64,000 nucleotides of DNA from a bacterium. GTDB taxonomy: Bacteria > Patescibacteriota > UBA1384 > VFKW01. The notes beneath the pieces were generated by a model that saw only the letters and a program-made list of their open reading frames with translations, searched no databases and was not told where the DNA came from. Position 1 is the stretch's first letter; each line of letters starts with the position of its first letter. Position numbers and translations under genes: made by a program. The stretch lies in the NCBI GenBank assembly GCA_030647355.1, contig JAUSIS010000006.1:169506-233505 (forward strand), given 5' to 3'. This document shows positions 642 through 17,501 of this stretch, one piece after another.

Positions 642-1553
642 CTACATGTAGTAGTTGAACATGTACGCATACTGTAGAAAATGTCCTTTGTGGTTGACGA
701 CAGGATGATTCCAGCATTTCCCTAGGCCATCTCTCAGAATATTACCGACGTTGATGCAGTCGTCTTGAGAGTAACCTTGAGAAATGACATCACCCCGTGA
801 ATCGATAAGGAAACAAGAGTGATGGTTGCCCAATTCGGAATAATCCTGAATAGTTATGAATGGCTCATCGCCCGACATCCTTTTGAGCTCTTGAAGCTGC
901 TTCAGATAAGTCTTCCTTTCCTCATCCGAAAGAAGAAGCTCCGTGTTCCCGTAAGCTTTACCTTGGGGCGCAATCAGGATATAGAACAGCCTGTCTACTC
1001 CCAAAGCTTTTGCTAGCTGGTAGATATAGTCTATCTTATCCAGATTGTCCTTTCTAACCAGGTAATTGATCCGCAATGGAACACCTGCGTCTCGGTATAG
1101 CTTCATTGACTCCACAGCCCTCCTATAGGCACCCTCGCCACGGGACCTGTCGTGAACTTCTTCGTCCCCATCCAAGGAAATCAACAGCAACGTTTTGGTT
1201 TCAAGGATTGTTTGGGCGATCTTTTGATTCCATATAGAGCCATTAGAAGTGACAAGGGTTTCGATGCCTCTGTCGGAAGCGTAGTTTAATATGTCACAGA
1301 TATCTGGACGAAGAAACGGCTCCCCCCCGGTGAAATCGATTCTCACCAGATTAGCCTCAGCCAAAACATCGACGATCGACTTGATGTCGCCCAAGGATAA
1401 TTCAGTAGAATCTTGCTCTCCGCTAAGACAGAAATCGCAATGGTAGTTACACCGTCGCGTAACCTGCCAGCAGAGTGATAACGGATTCGATAGCGTGACT
1501 TTCAGATTAGCCAATCGCTGCTCATGTCCTTCTTTGTACTCGACGATTCTCAT
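642..1553 (-). CDS. radical SAM enzyme with a C-terminal Cys-rich SPASM/twitch-like extension
   Basis: N-terminal CNYHCDFC (CxxxCxxC), a GGEP-like motif (FTGGEPFL), and C-terminal HHSCF...DDCINVG...KCWNH cysteines. A 9-bp gap separates it from the upstream methyltransferase gene. Confidence 0.7.
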   Translation of the reverse strand: MRIVEYKEGHEQRLANLKVTLSNPLSLCWQVTRRCNYHCDFCLSGEQDSTELSLGDIKSIVDVLAEANLVRIDFTGGEPFLRPDICDILNYASDRGIETLVTSNGSIWNQKIAQTILETKTLLLISLDGDEEVHDRSRGEGAYRRAVESMKLYRDAGVPLRINYLVRKDNLDKIDYIYQLAKALGVDRLFYILIAPQGKAYGNTELLLSDEERKTYLKQLQELKRMSGDEPFITIQDYSELGNHHSCFLIDSRGDVISQGYSQDDCINVGNILRDGLGKCWNHPVVNHKGHFLQYAYMFNYYM

Positions 1554-1562
1554 CTCTTATCC

Positions 1563-2270
1563 CTACCCTTTCTGATGCTGCAAAACCGAAGCTGTCATTT
1601 CCAAGACTGACACATTGTGCTGGATGTCTAGCGAAGGCAACTTCACGTTCCACTTGCCTGGAAAAGCGTTGTAGAATACCCCTTTCCTCGGCAATCTGAT
1701 AACAGTACCGACCACTGTCCTCGAAAAGAAGCCTAGGTCTGCATATGTACTCCTCATCCCCTCTGTGAATTCATTGATACCAAGCAGTTCACAAAACTCA
1801 TCGTTGCCGGCGTTTTCGATTGCAAGTATCATCCCGTCTGCTCGTAGGATGTCACCGAGCTTTCGAAAAACAATGTCGAACGAATCTCTCATAGACGTCA
1901 GACTCCACCCAGCGAAGATAAGGTCAACACTGCTGGGTAGTATGATCAAGTCTCTGGCATCTGTGAGCATGAATTCCACATTGTTGGCACCGAGATTCTT
2001 GTCGCGATTGATTTGCATCAAGCTTGTGCTTCTTTCTACGACGTAGAGCTTTGAGCACTCTCTCGATAAGAAAGATGTGAATTTCCCACTTCCAGCGCCG
2101 ACTTCAAGAATCGTTTTGCCCTTGAAATCGTACTGGCTGGATAAATACCCATCAATTATACCGAAAGCGTCCTGGCACCTACTGAATTCCTCGTAGGCAA
2201 CGCCCTGATTATAGTCAAATCGCCACAGGTCCTTGTTCATCTTAGTACCACCTTGTGATTGGTTTATCAA
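1563..2270 (-). CDS. class I SAM-dependent methyltransferase
   Basis: LEVGAGSGKFT glycine-rich motif I. AAGGTGG RBS 7 nt upstream of the ATG at 2270; an alternative start at 2240 is possible. Confidence 0.65.
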   Translation of the reverse strand: MINQSQGGTKMNKDLWRFDYNQGVAYEEFSRCQDAFGIIDGYLSSQYDFKGKTILEVGAGSGKFTSFLSRECSKLYVVERSTSLMQINRDKNLGANNVEFMLTDARDLIILPSSVDLIFAGWSLTSMRDSFDIVFRKLGDILRADGMILAIENAGNDEFCELLGINEFTEGMRSTYADLGFFSRTVVGTVIRLPRKGVFYNAFPGKWNVKLPSLDIQHNVSVLEMTASVLQHQKG

Positions 2271-2540
2271 TGTACCTCTATGTAAAAAGGGGTCAACCTT
2301 TTTAGATTAGCTGAATATTATCATGCATTAGACCAAAAAACAAGCCTTTGCCCGTATATTAAAAGAAATACCAGATAGTATTATTTGCTAGCGGGCCAAA
2401 GGAAGACTACTTGATTTGTTTCTAAATTTATGGTATTATCATGGCAACTAAACGGAGGGTCGCCCTGCGATCTTTTTGTTTGTAGGTTCCTTTACAACAG
2501 ATAGAATGTATCTCACACTAGAAAAGAGGAGGTGGCAACG

Positions 2541-3257
2541 GTGCAGTATGACGATAATGTCCTTGCAATAAGAGCCGCTGTAGCGAGATTTGAAGTTGAA
2601 CAAGGCGTTGATGTCAATGTCTTGTTTACGCAATTACTCCTACAGCATATCACCGACGGGTGCTCGTTGGTTGATATCGGCACTGGAAATGGTTTTGTTT
2701 TATCGCAAGTCTTGCAGCAAAGTGATAAACAGTTTCAACTATTCGGAGTAGATAACTCTCAGAGTATGGCATCTATTGCTCGGAAGAATCTTGTAGGAAA
2801 TGCTACTATCGTCGAAGCTGACGCTAGTGAGCTACCGTTTGATAACTGTAGCTTTGATATCGTATCTGCCAGAAATGTAACACAGATCGATGTTGTCGAG
2901 ATCTACCGTATATTGAAAGAAGGGGGGGTATTTGTCTTTCGTGAATATGGCTGCGGTAAGGGTATGCTGGAGATTGCCGATCTCTTTCGTGGCAGGATCA
3001 TTCGGCAGAGAGATCCTGATTATTATGTAGAAAGATTGCTAGACGCTGGTTTCCATATTGTGAAATTTGACCAATATGAGATCAAGCGTAAATACCGATC
3101 TGCACAAGAACTGGTTTCTATCGTCAAGAGCTACCCATTCGTTGTGGGTTTTTCCAGCCAGGACGAGAAGCTCATCTTAGAGAAGTTCGCCCAAAACGCT
3201 ACGATCACATCTGACCCGTTCATTCTGGTCACTACCAAACCGAAAGGATGTGCGTGA
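2541..3257 (+). CDS. class I SAM-dependent methyltransferase (Methyltransf_11/25-like)
   Basis: VDIGTGNGF motif I. AGGAGG RBS at 2526-2531 favours the GTG at 2541 over the tabulated 2532 start. The stop overlaps the next gene. Confidence 0.6.
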   Translation: MQYDDNVLAIRAAVARFEVEQGVDVNVLFTQLLLQHITDGCSLVDIGTGNGFVLSQVLQQSDKQFQLFGVDNSQSMASIARKNLVGNATIVEADASELPFDNCSFDIVSARNVTQIDVVEIYRILKEGGVFVFREYGCGKGMLEIADLFRGRIIRQRDPDYYVERLLDAGFHIVKFDQYEIKRKYRSAQELVSIVKSYPFVVGFSSQDEKLILEKFAQNATITSDPFILVTTKPKGCA

Positions 3258-3735
3258 AATGAGGAAAGTTGAATTGCTGTTCGATCTCATCAGGTCACCC
3301 TACGATATGGCACACATCGTCCAGATTGCCAAGTCGATCGACTGCATCGTCTATACTTCCGGCAGAAACTCGCTTTCTTTTGATATCCCCAAGGTGATAA
3401 CCAAGGTAAGATCTTGGAACATCAAGGGTGATTTCAAGGCGATTCATTATGAAACGTTTGAAGAAGCGATCCATGATCTGAGGGCAGAAGGTAAATACCT
3501 GGTGGGAACATCAGGTGAAGTCGACAAGCTTTTCTACGACATAGTTCTGCCGGATGGTAAGGATATAGTCGTAGTATTCGGCAACGAAACCTCCGGTCTG
3601 ACTGAAGCGAAGCAACAGATGTTGGACGATATGGTTAAGTTGCCAATGGACAAGTCCAAGGTTGATTTCCTGACCCTACCGGTGGCTGTCTCAGCCATCG
3701 CTTATGAGCTGTATCGACAGTACCACTGTCCGTAG
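3250..3735 (+). CDS. SPOUT-family RNA 2'-O-methyltransferase, TrmL-like
   Basis: C-terminal VVVFGNETSGL ... KLPM ... LTLPVAVSAIAYELYRQ matches the TrmL/SpoU motifs (FGxExxGL, IPM, SLNxSxAxxIxxYE). Protein is ~160 aa. Overlaps the upstream gene by 8 nt. Confidence 0.55.
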   Translation: MREMRKVELLFDLIRSPYDMAHIVQIAKSIDCIVYTSGRNSLSFDIPKVITKVRSWNIKGDFKAIHYETFEEAIHDLRAEGKYLVGTSGEVDKLFYDIVLPDGKDIVVVFGNETSGLTEAKQQMLDDMVKLPMDKSKVDFLTLPVAVSAIAYELYRQYHCP

Positions 3736-3757
3736 AGGAAGAAAGGTGGCGAGCATT

Positions 3758-4831
3758 ATGCTCAAGGATAAGATAGTTTATGTCGTCACCACGGGCGCAA
3801 CTAAGGCGAAAGGTGTTGGCATACTGCTCAGCATGCTAAAGTCAGAGGGTGCACAGTGCATCGTAATGCCAACCGACGCCAGCTATTCGATGCTTGATCT
3901 CGATTCAATCCGGGGCGAATGGGTCAAGTTCAATGGTAATGAATTCGGCGCCCGTCAAGACGAAATACCAGAAGAAGACCTAGTTGTTGTTGCGCCGTGC
4001 ACCTTCAATACGCTTTCCAAGATTGCGACGGGAATAGCTGATAACTATCCATTATCAGTGATCCATGCGGCGATCGGTAGCGGCAAGCCAGTGATTTTGG
4101 CCCTGGCTATGAATTACTGGTATTTCCAGCATCCTATAACTCCTGTAAACATCAACCGCGTAAACGCTTTTGGCAGGGTAAGGGTAATATGGCCTGAGTC
4201 GATCTATTCCGACGATGGTGTCCTCGAGAAAGTGACGATGGCGCCGTGGGAAAAGATTGTTGACACGATCTGCCATACCTACTGCAAGACACGATACAGC
4301 GAGACAAGAAAAGAACAAGAAACATCTGAGATTATCGATGATCACTTTCCAGAGTTCCATAAAACTGGCTCGAAGATGCAGCAAGACCATTTCACGAATG
4401 GTTCCGCTGGATTCATTGCCAAGAGAATTAAGGAAGGTGTACTTGTCACGTCTTCAGGGTCTTGTGTCGGAAATCTGTCAAGATCGGATCTCACGATTAT
4501 TCAGAACTGGTCCAATCAGGTTATAACCTGGTCAGGTGAGGCAAAGCCGTCGTCCGAGACGCCTTTGATATTGGAGATATTCGACAAATTCCCTGATGTC
4601 AAAGTAATCATACACGGACACTGTAGAAGCATCACTTACAGTCCTCTTATGAATAAGTATCACAGCAGTGAGTATCTCAAATACGGCGAATGGAAGGAGT
4701 TATACAAGATCCAGCCCGTTCTTCAGAAGTACAACGGGGGCATCATGAAATTGCATGGCGAGCTGATCCTTGCCAGGGATTTTGATGAAGCCATGGAGAG
4801 GTATCTGGATATGTATCGCCTAACCTGTTAA
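3758..4831 (+). CDS. two-domain fusion: HFCD/CoaC-like flavoprotein (N-terminal) plus class II aldolase/adducin-like domain (C-terminal)
   Basis: N-terminal APCTFNTLSKIATGIADN and ALAMNYWYF correspond to the HFCD PASANTxxKxAxGxxD and PAMNxxMW motifs. C-terminal PSSETPLILEIF...VIIHGHC corresponds to the class II aldolase PSSE...HTH pattern. GGTGG RBS sits before the ATG at 3758. Confidence 0.6.
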   Translation: MLKDKIVYVVTTGATKAKGVGILLSMLKSEGAQCIVMPTDASYSMLDLDSIRGEWVKFNGNEFGARQDEIPEEDLVVVAPCTFNTLSKIATGIADNYPLSVIHAAIGSGKPVILALAMNYWYFQHPITPVNINRVNAFGRVRVIWPESIYSDDGVLEKVTMAPWEKIVDTICHTYCKTRYSETRKEQETSEIIDDHFPEFHKTGSKMQQDHFTNGSAGFIAKRIKEGVLVTSSGSCVGNLSRSDLTIIQNWSNQVITWSGEAKPSSETPLILEIFDKFPDVKVIIHGHCRSITYSPLMNKYHSSEYLKYGEWKELYKIQPVLQKYNGGIMKLHGELILARDFDEAMERYLDMYRLTC

Positions 4832-4874: not shown

Positions 4875-4969
4875 ACCCAAAAAATTTATCATTTTACAGT
4901 ACAACTGGCATAAATTTATTATTTTGGTTATAATAACACTATTAGCCACAAATTTATAAAAGGAAGAAA

Positions 4970-5407
4970 ATGATCAAGAAAAAAATTCTAGCCATAGTTT
5001 ATAGGATAAAAAATCATAATGAACAGTTTCTAGCTTTATTGGAAAATAGCAGCGAAATCGATCAATCGGTCGGATACTACGTAGTTACCGGTGGAGTAGA
5101 AGGAAATGAAGGGTTACTGGATGCAGTGAAAAGAGAAATTATGGAAGAGACCGGAATAGAGAATATTGTTAATATTTTAGATTTGAATAAAATTTATGAA
5201 TACAAGCATCCAGCAGAGGGCGATTATCTCTGCCAGGAGTCTTGTTTTGCCGTGGAGGTTGATGACGAGGTGAAACATTTGAGCGTAGAGCATACAGGAT
5301 ATAAATGGTTACCTAGAAAAGAATTTTCCGATACGATATTTTGGTATACAAATAAAGCAGATTTAGATGAGCTATTAAATAAATTCATTAAGCACATGTC
5401 AAGGTAA
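4970..5407 (+). CDS. NUDIX hydrolase
   Basis: Nudix box GGVEGNEGLLDAVKREIMEETGIE (Gx5Ex7REUxEExGU). AAGGAAG RBS. Confidence 0.65.
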   Translation: MIKKKILAIVYRIKNHNEQFLALLENSSEIDQSVGYYVVTGGVEGNEGLLDAVKREIMEETGIENIVNILDLNKIYEYKHPAEGDYLCQESCFAVEVDDEVKHLSVEHTGYKWLPRKEFSDTIFWYTNKADLDELLNKFIKHMSR

Positions 5408-5601: not shown

Positions 5602-5631
5602 ATAGGTTCGAACAAACTCCCCTATGCGCTA
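5602..5631 (+). other. tRNA-Glu 3'-end-like fragment (T-arm/acceptor/CCA); possible att-site remnant
   Basis: GGTTCGAACAAACTCCCCTATGCGCTACCA matches the 3' terminal 26 nt of the intact tRNA-Glu at 10974-11048, apart from a 4-nt insertion. It is in inverted orientation relative to that gene. Confidence 0.45.
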
Positions 5632-5667
5632 CCACATGGTTTTTGATTTGAACCCGCAACCAACCCG

Positions 5668-5728
5668 GTAGACTGAATGAATCTTATTTCGAACACCTTG
5701 TGGATTGGCTGAATCAGCTAATGCTTGC
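5668..5728 (+). repeat. 61-bp direct repeat, copy 1 (flanks the SWIM/Fic island)
   Basis: ggtagactgaatgaatcttatttcgaacaccttgtggattggctgaatcagctaatgcttg. About 87% identical to the copy at 7679-7739 in the same orientation. Confidence 0.6.
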
Positions 5729-5805
5729 GTATGATCAGACGTTGTGTTTCAATCTCAAGAATGTATCTGATTGCTTTTAAAGTAAAAAGGCTCTAAAATG
5801 CAAAT

Positions 5806-6639
5806 ATGTTTTCATATACTAGAATTATTTTAGATAATACTGAATTATCGATCTATCAACGAGGCCTGGAATATGTCAACAAAAAGAAAGTGAAGTTAAC
5901 CTCTATCATAAATAATGGCTGCCAAGCAACTGCGAGTGGTTCACGAAATTATGAGATTACTCTAGGTTTCTCCAGGGTTGGCTCACCAAAATATTCCTGC
6001 TCCTGCCCATATTTTAGTGAACACAAAAAAGTGGTTTGTAAACATATTATTGGCACCTCGCTTGCTTGGGATAGATCGCGGAGTGTCCCTGATCCAGATG
6101 AAGAAACTTTGGAAGTACTTTGCATTCCGGAACCGATATTTTCGCACAAGGATATTAATGAAGCGTATAATAATCCGCTAACAGCTAACCTTGATGTTAT
6201 TCGAATCGCCGCTGATGAAAGCGGCTGGTCTAGGCCTCATGCACATTTACCAATAAAGCCACAAGTTTGTAATCATACAACCCTTGAGTTGACCGATATT
6301 AACAAAGGTATTTCAGAACTTCGTGCCTGGGCTAGAAAATATAACTTTGACCCCTATTTTTGCGCTGGCGAAATAATGGCCGGATTCTGTGAGCTCATAA
6401 GGTTCACTAAGTTTAAATTTGATACTTTAAATTTAGATGATAAAATTAAGGCAACAGTATTACTTGCTAATTTTCATCATGAATTAATCATGGAAAAGAT
6501 TGATGACAGCGAAGGCCTGCACGAATTTTCAGAAACTCATCTTTATGATCTAGTTAGCGAGTTAACTAACAATCAGAAGTTGAATCAGACGCAAATAAAA
6601 GCGCTTGAATTAATTAAACATAAAATTGATGATTATTAG
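5806..6639 (+). CDS. SWIM-type zinc-finger domain protein (hypothetical)
   Basis: CSCPYF...CKHI fits the SWIM CxCxnCxH signature. The rest has no other recognisable domain. Confidence 0.5.
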   Translation: MFSYTRIILDNTELSIYQRGLEYVNKKKVKLTSIINNGCQATASGSRNYEITLGFSRVGSPKYSCSCPYFSEHKKVVCKHIIGTSLAWDRSRSVPDPDEETLEVLCIPEPIFSHKDINEAYNNPLTANLDVIRIAADESGWSRPHAHLPIKPQVCNHTTLELTDINKGISELRAWARKYNFDPYFCAGEIMAGFCELIRFTKFKFDTLNLDDKIKATVLLANFHHELIMEKIDDSEGLHEFSETHLYDLVSELTNNQKLNQTQIKALELIKHKIDDY

Positions 6640-6660
6640 ATATGTTTTAGGTTAAATAAT

Positions 6661-7548
6661 TCAGGTAATTTTATATTCTGCCCTGATTTTCCAGACGCCT
6701 CGCTCGCGAAAAGCAGGAATCGATTGCCTTAGAGCGGCATTAAAAACTGTCGGAGCTCTTAAATTATTTTTTCGTACATAATCAGATAGATTGATTATTT
6801 CCGATCCTTCGAAATATGTGATTCTTTTATTTAACGATTCGGTTAGAGCCAGAGCCATAACTTTTTCCATCAATTTTGAATTTTTATTAAACTGATAAGC
6901 CTTAAATGCTTCATAATAGTCAGCCTTTTCTTTATCTCTGATAATTATACGGGGGAAGCCAAGTTGTAAGAGTTGAAAATTGGTCAGAACTCGACCAATT
7001 CGGCCGTTGCCATCGCAAAAAGGATGAATTCTCTCAAATTCAAGATGAAATTTAGCGATTTTATCAATAAAATAAGCAATGTGATCACTGGAATAATCAA
7101 TCAAAACATTATCAATTAACTGCTCGACTTTTTCGGGTGCCGACGCAACATGGGTGCCTACTCTAACATACTCGCCGATCCTACGAAAACGTCCGGCTAT
7201 ATTATCATCAATTCCGCCCATCAGCATTTGATGAATAAGCAATATTAGTTCTTTTGAGATTTCATCAGTTTGTGCTTTATCCCTTGTATAGTCAACAACC
7301 CTAGCCAAATTCTTAGCTTCATATACTTCGCGAAGGGTAACATCTCGTGAAAGCTCTTGCTCGAGTAGGATTTTTTCTGTCTCTTTAAGAGTCAATGTTG
7401 AGTTTTCAATCGCGTTGGAGTTATAGACACTTTCCGGCACTTCGGCTTGATCAATAATCGTTAAGAGAGCGTCTTTTCCTTGTTTCAAGACATTATATCT
7501 TGTCTTCAATTCACTTAATTTTTCTTGATAAGGTTTTGATAATGACAT
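6661..7548 (-). CDS. Fic/Doc family protein (class II Fic, putative AMPylase) with N-terminal inhibitory motif
   Basis: Canonical HPFCDGNGRIGR Fic motif. N-terminal SNAIEN fits the (S/T)xxxE(G/N) autoinhibitory helix. GGGGG RBS before the ATG at 7548 (tabulated start is 7590). Confidence 0.75.
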   Translation of the reverse strand: MSLSKPYQEKLSELKTRYNVLKQGKDALLTIIDQAEVPESVYNSNAIENSTLTLKETEKILLEQELSRDVTLREVYEAKNLARVVDYTRDKAQTDEISKELILLIHQMLMGGIDDNIAGRFRRIGEYVRVGTHVASAPEKVEQLIDNVLIDYSSDHIAYFIDKIAKFHLEFERIHPFCDGNGRIGRVLTNFQLLQLGFPRIIIRDKEKADYYEAFKAYQFNKNSKLMEKVMALALTESLNKRITYFEGSEIINLSDYVRKNNLRAPTVFNAALRQSIPAFRERGVWKIRAEYKIT

Positions 7549-7678
7549 AGTTGCCCCCAATTTAATGCAATTTAATTGTATACCATTCACGTTATTTTGT
7601 CAATATAGAGTGAATATGCATGTATATTAACATATATTCACGCTATTTTACTCCGCTCAACTCATTCATAGATGATTG

Positions 7679-7739
7679 GTAGACTGAATGCATCTTATTT
7701 CAAACACCTTGCGGATTAGCTGAATCAGTTAACGGTTGT
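7679..7739 (+). repeat. 61-bp direct repeat, copy 2
   Basis: ggtagactgaatgcatcttatttcaaacaccttgcggattagctgaatcagttaacggttg. Confidence 0.6.
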
Positions 7740-7834
7740 TAGTAATTTCACTGACAACTGATAAATTCCATACGATGTAACCATAGTAAATAACGGCTCG
7801 CTGGTTTTGAATTAGAATAGGCCTTAATATTACT

Positions 7835-10534
7835 TTATTTAGTCAGCACTACACTTATCTGGCTCTGGCTGATATTGCCGGCCGCATCATAGGCCTTGGC
7901 GACAATAGTGTAGGTACCGGCCGAGATGCCCTTGCCTCTGGTATTCCAAGTGTAGGAGTAAGGGGAAGTTGTATCGGTGGCTTTAAGAGAGCCGTTGATG
8001 TAAAACTCGACCTTAGCAACACCGACATTATCGGTGGCATTAGCTGTAATATTGACCTTGGTACCCATTTTAATATTAGCGCCACTTAAGGGCAAAGTAA
8101 TGGAGACTGCGGGAGGAGTGGTATCTGGTGTTCCCCCACCACCGCCACTACCGATGGTATAGAAAGCCCAGCCTCTACCCAGACAATTACCACTGCCGGC
8201 AGCAAAAGGTACCGGGCATGTTGTGAGGGTACTGGTAATAAGCGATGCTCTGACCGCAAATGGATAAACTTTTGCCGAAGCAGATAAGGGTGATGTTAAA
8301 TGTAGTATAGTTGAGCTACTTGTTCCTGAAGCCAGCGATGTCAATGTTTCTTGATCGAAGCCAAAAGACCATCCAATACCCATACCTGAACCGTTCTCCC
8401 ACATCAGACTATAACTTTGGTTGGAACAGTAAGAGTTGCTCGCATTCGTGACCGTAACAGTGTAGGAAACTTCAGCTCCCGCATTAACCGCTGTCGACAT
8501 TGTCGGCGTGATATTAACAACCGGGGTTTGATTTATACAATCAGTCGGCGCTCCGCTCCATACCACATAGGCAGCAGTGGATGTTCCAGCAAGAGCGGTG
8601 TTTGCTTGATGAGAAGCTTTGGCGGTGAAAAAGTAAAAACCTTGTGGAGTACTGGCCGGAGAGGTGACGGAGAGCATGGCGGTGCCTGTTGCCCCCGGCG
8701 GTAAAGTTAAATTGGAAACATTAAATTGAGCCGATAAATTAGGATCTGCTGTGTAGCCGAGATCGTAGGTGGCAGGTTCACAGCCAAGCGTGTCGCTATT
8801 CTTAATACCTATGACATAGTACAGAGTTTTTCCTCCAGTAGTAGTCCCTTGATTACCGCCGGCAATTTGCACCTGGGGAGCAAAACGACCACATACTGCG
8901 GTTGGGTCAATCGTAATGTTAACCGTTGCCTCTTGGTCTGTTACCGAGGTAGTAGTGATTTTTACTCCTGATGATGAATCATTGAATATTTGATCGGGTT
9001 TAAGCGCCCATTGAGTCGGCGTTGCCACTGAAGCGCCGGCACGCAAAAGGTCGGTCATGCTGCCATAGGTGATATCCGGAGCAATCCTTATAAATATTCC
9101 TCCCGGATTAGCAAAAGAGTCAAAGCCATAAGTTTTGCGATACTCCAAATAAAAATATTTTTTCACTACATTCGTAGCCGGGTCTATCTCCTTCGGGATT
9201 CTAATCATCTGGATACCACTTGACGCGTATTCTTGCGGGGCAATTTTATAGGTTCCGCTTTGAGTCACTGTTTGATAATTGGTGGAGGTAATCCAGTCTC
9301 TGAAAGTTTTGTAATAATTGTTGTAGTGATAATAACCGCCGCCCATAATATCATACGGATCGCCATACTCACTCCATTTACAATTATCCCCTATGGGAAC
9401 GGGGTTACTGGCAGTATCGGCGCAAATGAAAGAATTGGCGTGATAAAAACCAAGGTTATGTCCCATCTCGTGAGCAATTGTAGGTGAGTTATAGTAGATG
9501 GGAGTGCTGCCAGATCCGGTATAAGTTGAGTACCAACTGCTTCCACGTACCCCACTCCCCAAGGAGCCCCGCGCACTAAAGAGACATTGGGTGGAGATGT
9601 TGCCAAAAACATACTGAACATTGGTGTAGGCGGCCGGATCAAAACCATCCCTCGCGGCCGCCATCTTGTCTCCGGCACTCCCCCAGATTCCCCACCAATT
9701 ATCCGAAAATGAACAATCGTCATTTCTGTATGATATAGTATACCAGCCGTAAATATCCAAATTCGGATCTTTGATTCCGCTCATAATAGTCTTGCCGAAA
9801 GAAGCTTCCTTCCAAAGATTGTTCACCGAATTTGGATTCAGATAATTAATCTGACGAATATAATCATTGGTAACGGTTTGTGTTTGATCATTTTGGAAAT
9901 TAATCAAGATTACCGCTATTTTGCGCATATCTGTAGGGGTAACGGTCGCTGCAACTTCTTGGGAGTCAACTGCGACAATGTCCTCGCTTCTGGCGACAAT
10001 AATATCCTGAATTTTTATTCCACTTAGTTTCACATTTCTGTTAGCCAACGATGTCGGAGCTTCACCGTCAATAAATATTTCCGGCGCTTCCGGTAGCTTT
10101 CCTAGATAGTAATGCGCTTTACCGACTTTTTCTTGGAAATCATCTTCTATAATAACTTGCAAATTACCTTCGCTCCGAAACCGCTCCTCAACGCTAGGCT
10201 TAATTTCAGCCGGCATCTGGTTGTAGAAATTCAACGGTAGCGCTGAGCTCATAAACTCGCCGGGATTTTCTTTTGCTATCATTGTAAATTTATTTTTGCG
10301 TGATTGGGCAATATCTTTAAGTTCTGCCATATCCTCGATTTTCTTACTTTTCTTATATTTAGAGGCAGCACTTAAAAGCCGGTCATTAAGGTTTTTTACC
10401 ACCACTCGTTCTTCCTGAGTTTTCAGGACATCTGCCTTAAAGAAAAGGTTATTCTTCATTAAAACAATAACTAATCCTGCAGCAGATAGAACTAAGACGA
10501 AAATTAGAATTGATAACAAAGTTCTTTTGGGCAT
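7835..10534 (-). CDS. secreted/membrane-anchored metzincin-type zinc metalloprotease with C-terminal Ig-like domain
   Basis: N-terminal TM/signal anchor. HEMGHNLGFYH matches the metzincin HExxHxxGxxH zinc site. A long Thr/Ser/Gly-rich beta-rich region and a C-terminal Ig-like module (VEFYINGSL...YTWN...GTYTI) follow. AAGGAGGG RBS before the ATG at 10534. Confidence 0.6.
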   Translation of the reverse strand: MPKRTLLSILIFVLVLSAAGLVIVLMKNNLFFKADVLKTQEERVVVKNLNDRLLSAASKYKKSKKIEDMAELKDIAQSRKNKFTMIAKENPGEFMSSALPLNFYNQMPAEIKPSVEERFRSEGNLQVIIEDDFQEKVGKAHYYLGKLPEAPEIFIDGEAPTSLANRNVKLSGIKIQDIIVARSEDIVAVDSQEVAATVTPTDMRKIAVILINFQNDQTQTVTNDYIRQINYLNPNSVNNLWKEASFGKTIMSGIKDPNLDIYGWYTISYRNDDCSFSDNWWGIWGSAGDKMAAARDGFDPAAYTNVQYVFGNISTQCLFSARGSLGSGVRGSSWYSTYTGSGSTPIYYNSPTIAHEMGHNLGFYHANSFICADTASNPVPIGDNCKWSEYGDPYDIMGGGYYHYNNYYKTFRDWITSTNYQTVTQSGTYKIAPQEYASSGIQMIRIPKEIDPATNVVKKYFYLEYRKTYGFDSFANPGGIFIRIAPDITYGSMTDLLRAGASVATPTQWALKPDQIFNDSSSGVKITTTSVTDQEATVNITIDPTAVCGRFAPQVQIAGGNQGTTTGGKTLYYVIGIKNSDTLGCEPATYDLGYTADPNLSAQFNVSNLTLPPGATGTAMLSVTSPASTPQGFYFFTAKASHQANTALAGTSTAAYVVWSGAPTDCINQTPVVNITPTMSTAVNAGAEVSYTVTVTNASNSYCSNQSYSLMWENGSGMGIGWSFGFDQETLTSLASGTSSSTILHLTSPLSASAKVYPFAVRASLITSTLTTCPVPFAAGSGNCLGRGWAFYTIGSGGGGGTPDTTPPAVSITLPLSGANIKMGTKVNITANATDNVGVAKVEFYINGSLKATDTTSPYSYTWNTRGKGISAGTYTIVAKAYDAAGNISQSQISVVLTK

Positions 10535-10584
10535 TTTCCCTCCTTTATTCATATTATCTCAACTATAATAATTATAAATAGCCA

Positions 10585-10986
10585 ATGTGGCGGTGTCAAG
10601 TGTACGTATGGAATCGAATTGTATGTGGGAAACTCACCCAAATGGTCCACTTTGTGGCCGTTTCCCGACCCCTTCCCGGATCCGATTCCAGACTCATATA
10701 TACCAAAATAGAGGAGAAAATAAGAGCACTTCAAATCGCTAAGAATGACGATTTACTTTTGAAATATAATCTTGAGGCGATCACCAAATTTATAAAAAAC
10801 AAGCTTGGTAATCTCACTCAAACTTACATAGATTCAACTCTGGAACAGAAGAGAATCTTGTTGTGTTCGATATACCCCTCAGGATTGCATTGGGGCGAAA
10901 ATGGCTATTCGAACACCCAAATTAGCAAGTTCTACAGGAGTATATTGGGGATACAGACTGATAGCATCCCTTTTGGTAGCGCATAG
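10585..10986 (+). pseudogene. truncated tyrosine-recombinase (integrase)-like N-terminal fragment abutting tRNA-Glu
   Basis: STLEQKRILLCSIYPSGLHWGE resembles the start of the tyrosine recombinase catalytic domain (LLLLLYTGLRxxE), with H in place of the first catalytic R. It is preceded by a SAM-like core-binding stretch. The ORF runs into the tRNA and lacks the rest of the catalytic domain. Confidence 0.35.
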
Positions 10987-11048
10987 GGGAGTCGAACCCC
11001 TCTTTTCAGATTGAAAATCTGACGTCCTAACCGATAGACGAATGCGCC
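10974..11048 (-). tRNA. tRNA-Glu (anticodon UUC), CCA encoded
   Basis: Manual cloverleaf on the minus strand: acceptor GGCGCAT/ATGCGCT (G1-U72), D-arm GTCT/GGAC, anticodon stem TCAGA/TCTGA with loop TTTTCAA (UUC), T-arm AGGGG-TTCGACT-CCCCT, discriminator A + CCA. Confidence 0.8.
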
Positions 11049-11098
11049 TTTATCTCGAGCGTAGTCGAGAGGGTATCATTCTAACGAAAATATTATAT
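11049..11098 (+). repeat. MITE-like ~48-bp repeat, copy A (contains the CTCGA-GCGNAG-TCGAG hairpin core)
   Basis: tttatctcgagcgtagtcgagagggtatcattctaacgaaaatattata. About 88% identical to the copy at 12402-12455. Begins immediately at the 5' end of tRNA-Glu. Confidence 0.55.
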
Positions 11099-11233
11099 CG
11101 TAAATATGACAAATAATCAAGCTAGCTCAGGGTAATTCGCATTACCCTTCCTTTACAAAATGACTAATCGGTACTATAATTATGCAACATTCAAACGCCG
11201 CAAATTTACATCTACGAAAGGGGAAAATTATCC

Positions 11234-14770: not shown

Positions 14771-15796
14771 TTGTTTGGACAAGAGCTAATTGATGAAATT
14801 CGAAAATCAGGACTAACGGGCAGAAGCGGCTCCGGCTTCAATACAGCCGACAAATGGCACGCCGTCCTTAATGCCAATGCTGAAAAAAAATACGTCATAG
14901 CCAATGGCGCCGAGGGAGAACCGGATACCCACAAAGACTACTACCTTCTCTCGCATTATCCCCAAGAAATTATCAAAGGGATTATTCTGGCTATGCATAC
15001 AGTCGGTGCAATGGAAGGCTTTTTGTATCTGAAAGCAAGTTATTTCGATCGCCTACAAAGCAAACTCAGACACTTGTTAAGGGGGCTTCCCATCAAATTA
15101 GTTGTAGAAAATCCAGGCGGATATCGATGCGGAGAAGAAACAATCGTCATCCAGGTAATCGAGGGCAAGCGTGCTGAACCTCAATTCAAACCGCCTTATC
15201 CAACCCAAAAAGGACTCTGGGGATATCCTACTTTGATAGATAATGTTGAAACCATCTATACCGTGAAATTAATCAACGATGGAAAATATAAAAAAACCCA
15301 TTATTACACAATAAGTGGCCACGTTGAACACCCCGGAACATTTGAAGCACCGGAAAATATTACTGTAGAAAACTTACTCGTTCTCACTGACAATGAGCCG
15401 CAAGAAAAAACTTTTGCCCAAGTTGGCGGAGGTGCCAGCGGTAATATAGTAACCGACAACACTTATTTTTCCTGCAAAATAACTGGAACCGGTTCGGTTT
15501 CTCTCCACCTTCTGGGCGAAGCGCCGGCAAGGTTATTAAAACTCATCAAATTTTACAAAAAAGAATCATGCGGTAAATGTATCCCATGCCGGGAAGGCGC
15601 CTACCGCCTTTATGAATTAATTACAGCACCCAAAATCAACTGGCAGGAAATTGAGGATATTTTAGATACTATGGAAAAAACGAGTTTCTGTGCTCTAGGT
15701 CGTAGCATTGCTTTGCCGGCTCGCGGATTAATTAAATTAGCCGGCGAAGTCAAACAAACTATTACAGAGGAAGAATATGCCAAAAATAACAATTGA
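14771..15796 (+). CDS. NuoF-like NADH-binding Fe-S flavoprotein (hydrogenase beta / HndC-like)
   Basis: GRSGSGFNTADKW (GRGGAGFPTGxKW), ANGAEGEPDTHKD (CNADEGEPGTFKD) and ESCGKCIPCREG (4Fe-4S motif). Confidence 0.7.
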   Translation: MFGQELIDEIRKSGLTGRSGSGFNTADKWHAVLNANAEKKYVIANGAEGEPDTHKDYYLLSHYPQEIIKGIILAMHTVGAMEGFLYLKASYFDRLQSKLRHLLRGLPIKLVVENPGGYRCGEETIVIQVIEGKRAEPQFKPPYPTQKGLWGYPTLIDNVETIYTVKLINDGKYKKTHYYTISGHVEHPGTFEAPENITVENLLVLTDNEPQEKTFAQVGGGASGNIVTDNTYFSCKITGTGSVSLHLLGEAPARLLKLIKFYKKESCGKCIPCREGAYRLYELITAPKINWQEIEDILDTMEKTSFCALGRSIALPARGLIKLAGEVKQTITEEEYAKNNN

Positions 15797-17501
15797 GATA
15801 AATGGAAAGAAAATTGAAACCAACGAAGGCAAGACAGTTTTTCAAATTGCCAAGGAAAACGGTATCTATATACCTTCTTTATGTTATCATCCCGACTTGC
15901 CGGCAGGATCATCCTGTCGCCTTTGTCTTGCTCAGGTAGATGGCTCTCCGAGACCAACAACGTCATGCAACCTTACTGCTAAAGATGGCATGAAAATCAA
16001 AACCAATACCCCTGAAATTAAAAAGCTTCGCGCCAAAAACTTGGAATTTATTTTTGGAGAACACGTAATTAATTGTGGTGACTGCTTAAAAAGCTTTGAC
16101 TGCACTATCCTCCAGCTTGCCAAAGAATTTGGTATTGATATCTATCATTATAAGCATCGCAAATCGCAACCGCGACACTATACATATGGTCATGTCATCG
16201 AATTTGAAGGCAATAAATGTATCGAATGCAACAATTGTGTCGAAGCCTGCAAAAATCAATCAATTGGCTGCCTGAAAACGGCGGACTTCAATCAGGAAAC
16301 TCACATAATTCCTAGCACCGAGTCGCCGTGCATCTCCTGTGGTCAATGCATTGTTCACTGTCCAGTTGGTGCTATTCATTCAAAAAATAATGTAAAGGAA
16401 GTCGAGCGTGAATTGAGTTTAAAGCGCAAGAAAATTGTCTTTCAATTCGCCCCGTCTGTTCGAGTTTCTATTGGTGAAGAATTCGATCTACCCCCTGGAA
16501 AGATAATGACCGGACAAATCATCACCGGTCTCAAAAAACTCGGAGCGGATTGGGTGGTTGATGTTGATCTCGGTGCCGATCTGACAACCTACGCAGAGGC
16601 TCTGGAACTTGTGGAGAGATTCTCTGAAAAGAAAAACCTACCCATGATGACAACATGCTGTCCTTCCTGGGTTCTTTACGTCGAAACGCATCACCCCGAG
16701 TTTATTCCAAATCTCACATCGGTTCGTTCCCCTAATATGATCGCCGGCGGTATCTTAAGGCAAATCTTTGCCAAAAAAGTGTCAATCCAGTGCAAAGATT
16801 TATATACTGTCTCGGTCATGCCATGCACTGCCAAAAAACACGAAATCAACCGTCAGGAAATGTGGCATAATGGTGTTAAACCGGTTGACGCGGTGCTCAC
16901 AACCAGAGAGCTGGCATACCTATTCAAAAAGCGAGGTATCAACCTCGCTTTGCTCCCTTCCGCAAAACCGGATAGCCCATTAGGTGTGGAAACAGGATCG
17001 GGAACTATCTATGGCTCGTCGGGTGGAGTCATGGAAGCAGCCTTGCGCACGGGTTACTATTTCATCACCGGTAAAAACTTAAAAAATGTCGAAATTAAAG
17101 ACGCCCGAGGCATGAAAGGATTAAAAGAAGTGGAAGTTCAAATCGGTAAGCAAACTCTCCGCACAGCCGTGGTTAATGGGATGGAAAATATTGAGGAACT
17201 ACTAGTTCGACTCAAAGAAGATCCTAACCGCTACCACTATATAGAAATAATGGCTTGTCCGGGCGGCTGTATAGGTGGCGGAGGTCAGCCGATCAGCACT
17301 GACGAAAATATTAGGCAAAAAAGACAGAATGCTATTTATGAAATAGATAAGAAATCTACAATACGATTAGCCCACGAAAATCCTGTAGTGAAAAACCTCA
17401 TGGACAATGAACTGAAAACCAAATCAGCCCGCAAGCGCTTGCTAGAGACTAAATACCAGAAATCCGCAGGTCCAGGCATTATTCAAAAAATTATAAATTA
17501 A
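15777..17501 (+). CDS. hydA: [FeFe]-hydrogenase catalytic subunit
   Basis: H-cluster motifs TSCCPSW (L1), MPCTAKKHE (L2) and MACPGGCIGGGGQP (L3). N-terminal 2Fe-2S and two 4Fe-4S ferredoxin-like Cys clusters. Confidence 0.8.
   Translation: MPKITIEINGKKIETNEGKTVFQIAKENGIYIPSLCYHPDLPAGSSCRLCLAQVDGSPRPTTSCNLTAKDGMKIKTNTPEIKKLRAKNLEFIFGEHVINCGDCLKSFDCTILQLAKEFGIDIYHYKHRKSQPRHYTYGHVIEFEGNKCIECNNCVEACKNQSIGCLKTADFNQETHIIPSTESPCISCGQCIVHCPVGAIHSKNNVKEVERELSLKRKKIVFQFAPSVRVSIGEEFDLPPGKIMTGQIITGLKKLGADWVVDVDLGADLTTYAEALELVERFSEKKNLPMMTTCCPSWVLYVETHHPEFIPNLTSVRSPNMIAGGILRQIFAKKVSIQCKDLYTVSVMPCTAKKHEINRQEMWHNGVKPVDAVLTTRELAYLFKKRGINLALLPSAKPDSPLGVETGSGTIYGSSGGVMEAALRTGYYFITGKNLKNVEIKDARGMKGLKEVEVQIGKQTLRTAVVNGMENIEELLVRLKEDPNRYHYIEIMACPGGCIGGGGQPISTDENIRQKRQNAIYEIDKKSTIRLAHENPVVKNLMDNELKTKSARKRLLETKYQKSAGPGIIQKIIN

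Follow-up and report, generated by a model that had tools for sequence, protein, structure and literature searches.

Several bacterial islands are known to be bounded by direct repeats of the gene that they target. Cis-mobilizable elements (CIMEs) and their tandem accretion at attachment (att) sites have been described (Pavlovic 2004; Bellanger 2011; reviewed in PMC5704250). In Dehalococcoides, islands at ssrA are bounded by ssrA 3'-end repeats together with an adjacent conserved motif that is not part of ssrA, and some of these islands, which are without an integration module, have been proposed to be CIMEs (PMC3146451). The locus analysed here lies in a 64,000-nt stretch (the window) of contig JAUSIS010000006.1, positions 169,506 to 233,505, from a Patescibacteriota bacterium (assembly GCA_030647355.1) of the candidate phyla radiation (CPR). 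Two 61-bp direct repeats, c1 and c2, enclose a gene for a SWIM zinc-finger protein and a gene for a class II Fic protein. These repeats are probably att-type boundaries left by site-specific insertion beside a tRNA-Glu gene, and the locus is then a tandem array of integrase-less islets. The observations behind this reading are the homology of the repeat copies, their similarity to tRNA-Glu, their recurrent place around Fic genes, their co-orientation with tRNA-Glu and the absence of a recombinase nearby. A preliminary description of the window had suggested an old insertion or a deletion-prone cassette; the insertion is supported and becomes specific, with repeats that belong to a tRNA-Glu-like att-type family also bounding Fic genes in other CPR contigs.

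A repeat search of the window placed c1 at 5667-5727 and c2 at 7678-7738, in the same orientation, with their starts 2011 nt apart and 54 of 61 positions identical (89%). The two same-orientation copies about 2.0 kb apart had been recognized before, with coordinates off by one and an identity of ~87%. As members of the element family described below, c1 spans 5666..5731 (nhmmer E 2.8e-19) and c2 spans 7677..7740 (E 6.1e-17); the tRNA-like reading of both is on the (-) strand, and in c1 it runs from a hairpin at the anticodon-arm position to the CTACC end. Exactly two genes lie between them, SWIM at 5806-6639 (+) and Fic at 6661-7548 (-), convergent as previously noted, with stop codons separated by 21 nt (6640-6660) rather than 22. 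The flanks of c1 and c2 do not align and show no homology beyond the repeats, and the mismatches between the two copies are not adenine-specific. Deletion by homologous recombination is unlikely, given that the longest exact run shared by c1 and c2 is only 13 nt (manual count). A chance match or a recent local duplication would fit the finding of just two full-length copies in the window, but this explanation is almost certainly wrong: the 34-nt degenerate core occurs at c1 and c2 only in the 64 kb, with a shuffle expectation of 0 (100 shuffles), c1 is closer to a copy in another genome (92%) than to c2 (89%), and the family has at least ten members.

These members occupy six distinct contig contexts (those outside the window are denoted by L numbers), all apparently from CPR/Patescibacteria, so the repeat is not a private duplication. 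The window itself holds a third, partial copy, c3, at about 449-512, with its tRNA-like reading on the (+) strand and therefore inverted relative to c1 and c2 (nhmmer E 9.3e-14); it was detected at E 7e-5 with a two-copy hidden Markov model (HMM) and at 2.6e-12 with a five-copy HMM, and an intrinsic terminator (514-545) follows it directly. The copy closest to c1 (L006, 6558-6623) comes from a Saccharibacteria metagenome-assembled genome, where it sits between RNase Y and an XRE/PLD-nuclease cluster and has nothing else in common with the window. In L013, a further copy is flanked by a PIN toxin gene and the gene of a distant SWIM homologue. The HMM built from c1, c2, c3, L006 and L013 recovered independent copies at the L016 locus (L016a, E 8.7e-8; L016b, 5.3e-5; L016c, 3.4e-5) and at the L018 locus (L018d, 1.2e-4), and a nine-copy HMM recovered L026d (E 1.8e-12). 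A scan of GTDB representatives (one genome per species) with a 25-base degenerate core found a single copy, L006, and hence does not include the genome of the window. Scans of JGI metagenome contigs yielded no copies and only two chance matches inside genes; two scans of IMG/VR and blastn against phage and plasmid records yielded no copies. The repeat is not a generic genome-wide sequence, with three copies in 64 kb that all lie within 8 kb, yet it is not unique to the SWIM-Fic pair either.

Read in the sense of the tRNA, the element can be aligned to the final ~55 nt of tRNA-Glu, covering the anticodon-arm position through CCA. In an alignment of all copies with the 3' parts of three tRNA-Glu genes, the hairpin or dyad of the element occupies the anticodon-arm position, the T-loop-like block GGTGTTCGA falls on the tRNA-Glu T-stem/loop GGGGTTCGA, and the element ends in (G/T)CTACC(A). 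Every copy of every genome has two insertions, one of +2 nt within the variable-loop region and one of +5 nt following TTCGA. The length of ~61 nt is accounted for by a block of identity that runs from the anticodon arm as far as the 3' end, enlarged by these seven inserted bases. Such a block, as Williams reportedly described in 2002, is typical of one class of tRNA att sites. Local alignment to the L026 tRNA-Glu gave z-scores against shuffled controls of 9.2 (L016a), 7.1 (L016b) and 6.7 (L016c), and L018d scored 6.5 against the tRNA-Glu of its own locus, whereas scores against tRNA-Lys and tRNA-Arg were mostly near 0, with a maximum of 3.3. L016a also has 17 consecutive nucleotides, TTGAGGCTACCAAAAAA, in common with the 3' end and flank of the L026 tRNA-Glu. 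The flanking direct repeats appear to derive from the 3' end of the target tRNA, a link that for c1 and c2 runs via the family. The copies are not functional tRNA parts; the T-stem cannot form, and ARAGORN called no tRNA at the copies.

The same resemblance could be read as tRNA-Glu pseudogene relics in a recombination-prone region, with the accessory genes having arrived in another way, for example by flank recombination after DNA uptake. CPR bacteria are thought to depend on DNA uptake; this dependence, the likeness to the 3' part of tRNA-Glu and the lack of a nearby integrase all favour such an origin. We nevertheless consider it quite unlikely, because the same +2/+5 insertions recur in six contexts at non-homologous loci, which implies the spread of one sequence that was already degenerate, and because a 5' half is never present: the 3' part alone is the pattern of an att duplication. 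The universality of the insertions indicates descent of all copies from one element-borne sequence rather than independent tRNA decay. What spreads is the degenerate sequence itself, presumably in the role of the att-site part that the element carries.

The arrangement around related Fic genes provides further evidence. Three contexts, those of the closest Fic homologues (83-86% identity), were examined: L016/L017, L018-L025 and L026-L029. At L016/L017 (Fic 86%), the order is element, 148 nt, Fic, 48 nt, element, with no other gene in between; a third copy, L016c, lies 4.6 kb away, and all three L016 copies are co-oriented. At L018-L025 (Fic 83%) the order is tRNA-Lys, tRNA-Glu, Fic, element, and at L026-L029 (Fic 86%) it is tRNA-Lys, tRNA-Glu, Fic, PRiA4_ORF3, element. 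An element is thus found downstream of Fic in all three contexts, and the upstream boundary is either tRNA-Glu or another copy. The upstream element of L016 occupies the place of tRNA-Glu in L026, with a terminator and the conserved Fic promoter region coming next in both; the 10 kb of L016 contain no tRNA. In L018 and L026, tRNA-Glu stands directly upstream of Fic in the same sense as the element downstream. SWIM is absent from all three contexts; between Fic and the distal repeat, L016 has an empty slot, L026 carries PRiA4_ORF3 and the window carries SWIM.

Two side observations concern the L018 contigs. L018 has, at ~4905-4945, one more 3' piece of tRNA-Glu (CCCCTTGAG). It is of the L026 type, lacks the +5 insertion and is located 13 nt ahead of the Fic promoter homology; an L026-type piece at L018 suggests that part of a donor tRNA-Glu came in together with the cassette. 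The L018-L025 contigs also encode a diversity-generating retroelement (bAvd and reverse transcriptase; L018 9799-10793), some 4 kb away from the Fic cassette.

In the window, the presumed primary integration target is the tRNA-Glu (UUC) gene at 10974-11048 (-). The order is tRNA-Glu, a 905-aa gene, c2, the Fic promoter with Fic and SWIM, and c1, and tRNA-Glu, c2 and c1 are co-oriented in the tRNA-like reading. A target tRNA co-oriented with the repeats directly borders the Fic unit in L018 and L026; in the window it is one segment beyond c2. The product of the 905-aa gene (7835-10552, -) is a secreted protein that bears a zinc-metalloprotease-like motif (AHEMGHNLG) and has a Big_7 domain at its C terminus. 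The gene fills the segment from tRNA-Glu to c2, which may be a first islet of the array, and may itself be island cargo. The repeat c2, which lies between the Fic promoter and the stop of the 905-aa gene, reads as the boundary separating two successive islets, and c1 as the distal (attR-type) boundary of the Fic/SWIM islet. A further fragment, psi (5605-5634, +), lies 33 nt left of c1 and consists of GGTTCGA, ACAAA and CTCCCCTATGCGCTACCA. Its last 18 nt (5617-5634) are identical to the 3' end of tRNA-Glu (10974-10991, -), an 18-mer found nowhere else in the window, and it has a 5-nt insertion at the position typical of the element family. The tRNA-Glu gene, the repeat's resemblance to it, the inverted c3 and the 5605-5634 fragment had all escaped the preliminary description.

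Beyond c1, a five-gene block (642-4831) encodes a radical SAM protein, two methyltransferases, a SpoU methylase and a flavoprotein-class II aldolase fusion. It is syntenic with GCA_030154545.1, the nearest available relative (62-63% protein identity for the flavoprotein gene), and the synteny stops exactly at c3 in one direction and past the flavoprotein in the other. The best non-self match of this flavoprotein is at 63%, compared with 86% for Fic, and the GC content of the NUDIX, SWIM and Fic genes is 1.3-1.8 standard deviations below the window mean, a mild deviation. These values are suggestive of foreign or disseminated cargo, and could also reflect slow evolution of Fic.

From this arrangement we infer an integration reaction, a crossover point and a recombinase. 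A tyrosine or serine integrase, encoded elsewhere or lost, would have catalysed the insertions, with crossover in the dyad at the anticodon-arm position or in the T-loop. Such a layout is the standard signature of integration at a tRNA gene, in which the tRNA flanks the new DNA at one end and a copy of the tRNA's 3' part flanks it at the other; repeated insertion would then by accretion produce a tandem array with a repeat between neighbouring islets. In the second islet, Fic with its own promoter would be the conserved cargo, and SWIM would sit tail-to-tail with it in a variable slot. The islet is probably fixed now. The reading as accessory-island cargo fits the matches of SWIM and Fic to the PADLOC 'phage defence candidate' models PDC-S62 (E 9e-12) and PDC-S04 (E 7e-39), and it fits the position of SWIM homologues among VapBC, BrnTA, HicAB and AbiEii modules.

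Several results weigh against integration beside tRNA-Glu. No integrase or recombinase was detected by Pfam in the islet or among the annotated open reading frames (ORFs) of at least 120 aa in 1-17.5 kb, nor in the 4.2 kb to the left of the window (L001), and tblastn of the whole 64-kb window with a XerC/D-like query gave no match. Because no recombinase was found, the locus is read only as a CIME-like remnant and not as an autonomous integrative element. The alignment of c1 and c2 to the window's own tRNA-Glu is weak (z 0.9-2.3), so their link to the tRNA is transitive, via the family; the element HMM matched one real tRNA-Glu only, and weakly (E 0.0012 in a 13-tRNA set), and the Rfam tRNA model (RF00005) did not call the copies that were tested. 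Four copies (L006, L013, L016c and c3) are not beside tRNA-Glu within the sequence examined. Both c3 and psi run opposite to the tRNA gene, an inversion that simple tandem accretion does not predict. Finally, the homology of the Fic cassette begins 33-110 nt away from the upstream boundary, beyond unrelated spacer, which points to an imprecise left junction.

Like CIMEs, the array has direct att repeats from the 3' end of a target gene, stands in tandem downstream of that target, carries no integrase or transfer genes inside and holds accessory or defence-type cargo. It differs from them in the size of its units (only 1.1-2.0 kb, with one or two genes), in the lack of an identified cognate integrase-bearing element, in the inversion of c3 and psi, and in the several copies located away from tRNA-Glu within the sequence examined; mobility would here be an inference from the arrangement. 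The Dehalococcoides ssrA islands are alike in that multiple islands stand in tandem downstream of a small RNA gene, each bounded by the 3'-end repeat of that gene, and the motif beside their repeat, which does not align with the target, is comparable to the insertions of the element family. Their target, in contrast, is a tmRNA, their repeat is 20 bp long and most of them carry a serine-recombinase module, whereas the element islets have about 55-60 nt of target-like sequence and no recombinase was seen.

Integron cassettes offer another comparison. As in these, one or two genes are followed by a 3' site of roughly 60 nt with an imperfect palindrome, arrays are co-oriented, the better-folding strand is complementary to the upstream ORF as in attC, and toxin-like genes occur in the cargo. 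The element could accordingly be the recombination site of a CPR-specific cassette system, with integron-like gene capture on a tRNA-derived site. One- or two-gene defence or toxin cassettes, each with a ~60-nt tRNA-Glu-derived site at its 3' end, would be inserted serially at tRNA-Glu or at resident sites by a trans-encoded recombinase, possibly via the better-folding strand. If true, this would account for the copies at non-tRNA loci and for the variable slot beside Fic. We regard it as unlikely. Unlike integrons, the element is without IntI, attI, Pc, the R''/L''-L'/R' architecture and the GTTRRRY core; unlike attC, it is conserved between genomes in sequence rather than structure, is tRNA-derived and has a 6-8 bp hairpin at one end. 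An integron attC as such was rejected on inspection, with no RYYYAAC/GTTRRRY pair, pairing limited to one 6-8 bp hairpin and no integrase found.

The hairpin also bears on a rival reading, in which the element would act as an intergenic RNA or a regulatory module, such as a 3'-UTR (untranslated region) element or a small antisense RNA. It would owe its dispersal among CPR genomes to this function, and its position beside Fic would be incidental to mobility. Seven of the first nine copies lie 3-100 nt past the stop of a convergent gene, L026d shows the same pattern, and at least six copies have an A-run/hairpin/T-run terminator of unrelated sequence directly at the CTACC end. Hairpin pairing reaches 83.8% of cells on the window's (+) strand, a level attained by 0 of 500 shuffles, versus 61.3% on the other strand; the better-folding strand is antisense to the tRNA-like reading and shows three compensatory pairs. 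By eye, the alignment shows a TAGNCT hexamer, with TG ahead of it in most copies, that is reminiscent of an extended -10 box. This strand bias keeps either an RNA reading or a single-strand attC-like reading alive. As an account of the family, however, a regulatory RNA is unlikely. Rfam 15 gave no match for the repeats at gathering thresholds, and nothing relevant even at E<=10 around c1, c2, L006, L016a/b and L018d. Three copies together give a weak consensus fold (-8.9 kcal/mol) without covariation, the G-U pairs of the hairpin are mostly shared by descent and amount to about three events, and neither a conserved -35 box nor a terminator after the hairpin was found. Such a module would also leave unexplained both the resemblance to tRNA-Glu and the presence of tRNA-Glu in the place of the upstream copy at L018 and L026.

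Other identities of the element were tried and rejected. A micro-ORF (MNLISNTLWIG; ATG, ten codons and stop in c1, c2 and L006) loses its ATG and frame in L013 and has in-frame stops in other copies. A coding relic on the other strand ('GVRNKIHSVY') is interrupted by in-frame stops in 5 of 9 copies, and all three codon positions are conserved. A full cloverleaf or tRNA-like gene was dismissed because ARAGORN and RF00005 are silent and the 5' acceptor complement upstream of c1 is not kept in L006. A scan found no sigma-70 promoter within the repeat, and the Fic promoter lies outside c2. XerCD dif/pdif sites, REP/RAYT (GTAG plus palindrome), terminal-inverted-repeat transposon ends, CRISPR repeats and the template and variable repeats (TR/VR) of diversity-generating retroelements were judged by inspection to misfit in architecture. 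An attenuator pairing between element and terminator was seen in L016a and not reproduced in the other copies.

The cargo raises a separate question, whether the repeats delimit a functional unit of two genes dedicated to each other, with SWIM as the sensor, regulator, target or antidote of the Fic enzyme. A Fic gene within two genes of a SWIM homologue is found in three of eight distinct SWIM contexts (the window, L002 and L012), far above chance for a gene class present about once per genome, and in the window the two stops are just 21 nt apart. Adjacency thus recurs elsewhere, as the preliminary description had proposed to check, but the Fic proteins at L002 and L012 belong to another, SoFic-like subfamily. 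The three SWIM-adjacent Fic proteins are only 27-32% identical, and the order and orientation of the genes vary. Across the eight contexts, the neighbours of SWIM are Fic (three times), AbiEii, VapBC, BrnTA, HicAB, PRiA4_ORF3 and NAGPA. The closest SWIM homologue (71%) is tail-to-tail, 8 nt apart, with an AbiEii toxin gene and not with Fic, and the three closest Fic contexts have no SWIM, their slot holding PRiA4_ORF3 in one and nothing in another. Moreover, a class II Fic protein has its own inhibitory helix and so requires no partner, and SWIM and Fic match separate single-gene PADLOC candidate models. A dedicated pair is therefore decidedly improbable, and the suggestion that SWIM is a target or partner of Fic meets a mostly negative answer. 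Instead, SWIM reads as a passenger in the variable slot between Fic and c1, and the best explanation for its adjacency to Fic is that both genes reside in small accessory islets linked to tRNAs. A dedicated partnership is not supported; nothing found requires a functional link.

The L002 context is another tRNA-linked accessory islet. Its cluster (8049-11126) comprises a SWIM homologue, a Fic fragment, a SoFic-like Fic and HicAB, and starts 85 nt after tRNA-His. Small ORFs without a family match lie between SWIM and the SoFic-like Fic both there (9083-9247, 54 aa) and in L012 (1577-1738, 53 aa). A small anti-Sofic protein encoded beside Sofic has been described (PMC12249575).

The Fic protein of the window has 295 aa from its ATG and matches the Pfam Fic family at 76 bits. 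Its catalytic motif HPFCDGNGR, in a translation that reads HPFCDGNGRIGR, conforms to HxFx(D/E)GNGRxxR, and SNAIEN, at about residues 43-48 and N-terminal to the Fic core, fits [ST]xxxE[GN]. Human FICD is the best solved-structure match (E 5.7e-22), and the glutamate of SNAIEN aligns in phmmer with that of the inhibitory-helix motif TVAIEGN of FICD. These features uphold the earlier assignment and, at the level of sequence, support a putatively self-inhibited class II AMPylase. The class I toxin/antitoxin arrangement (VbhT/VbhA type) does not apply here; the motif is intramolecular, and the gene next to Fic, which the closest Fic loci lack, lies on the opposite strand and encodes the 277-aa SWIM protein rather than a small antitoxin. 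The best solved-structure matches are FICD/HYPE, Clostridium difficile Fic (4X2E) and Bacteroides BT_2513 (3CUC), class II proteins with which the window Fic shares HPFxDGNGR and the N-terminal [ST]xxxE[GN] helix. Unlike FICD, it is without a tetratricopeptide repeat (TPR) or transmembrane region, and relative to known class II proteins it has about 100 extra C-terminal residues; its activity is predicted. Fic has more than 7995 homologues at E<1e-40, of which the closest reaches 86% identity, and relatives at 68-74% identity are labelled Woesebacteria, Berkelbacteria and Falkowbacteria.

Upstream of Fic and outside c2 lies a strong sigma-70-like promoter (TTGACA-17-TACAAT, 7603-7575, -; region 7575..7641). 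It is accompanied by GTGAAT(AT) boxes, an inverted pair at 7610-7617 and 7634-7641 and a third between -35 and -10. GTGAAT(A) boxes are kept at all four Fic loci (the window, L016 ~5900-6000, L018 ~4900-5000 and L026 ~7900-8000) and look like a candidate operator for a repressor. The blastn homology between the window and L016 reaches about 105 nt upstream of the Fic start.

The SWIM protein (277 aa) matches Pfam SWIM (PF04434) at 21.7 bits, with a cutoff of 19.6, and the residues C65, C67, C78 and H80 of its CxCxnCxH finger are invariant among 15 homologues. It had been described as having no other known domain, which holds for Pfam and NCBIfam; its C-terminal 190 aa, however, form a conserved helical domain with the invariant motifs WSRPHxRLP, DPYFCAGE and IDDSDGxH, and its distant relatives are SWIM+DUF6880 proteins. 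The structure predicted by AlphaFold2 (pLDDT 89) is helical in this domain, and the model has no PDB fold match at E<=0.001. Like SWIM+DUF6880/PDC-S62 proteins, it has an N-terminal SWIM finger and then a helical region, which aligns to the first ~240 of 566 profile positions. Unlike these 560-600-aa proteins, it is half as long and has the three motifs of its own. Within residues ~141-239 (6226-6522), W141, R143, H145, D182, Y184, F185, C186, G188, E189, D233, S235 and G237 are invariant and H239 nearly so. The conserved residues of this domain suggest a metal-binding or catalytic site. The family is small, with 19 proteins in a word-indexed search and 39 representatives at E<1e-30.

Little is known about the gain and loss of accessory genes in the tiny genomes of CPR/Patescibacteria. 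The locus displays a recognizable signature, a ~60-nt tRNA-Glu-like border of very small islets in several CPR contigs; across these contigs, the cargo includes genes for a Fic AMPylase and for SWIM, along with toxin-antitoxin genes and others of defence type. Should the signature hold across whole genomes, it would provide a sequence handle for mobile cargo, integration hot spots and the responsible recombinase. The tempting idea of a dedicated SWIM-Fic pair is at the same time removed as unsupported.

Some features of the surroundings complete the description. About 55 nt downstream of tRNA-Glu, at 10903-10918 (-), the T-loop-like block GGGTGTTCGAATAGCC resembles the element core; the ORF around it (10585-10986, 133 aa) is probably spurious and matches no family. 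Homologues of the flavoprotein-aldolase fusion are labelled CPR bacteria and also Pacearchaeota/Nanoarchaeota. Further along the window, a NuoF-like flavoprotein and the large subunit of an [FeFe]-hydrogenase are encoded at 14771-17501, in keeping with a CPR bacterium that lives by fermentation.

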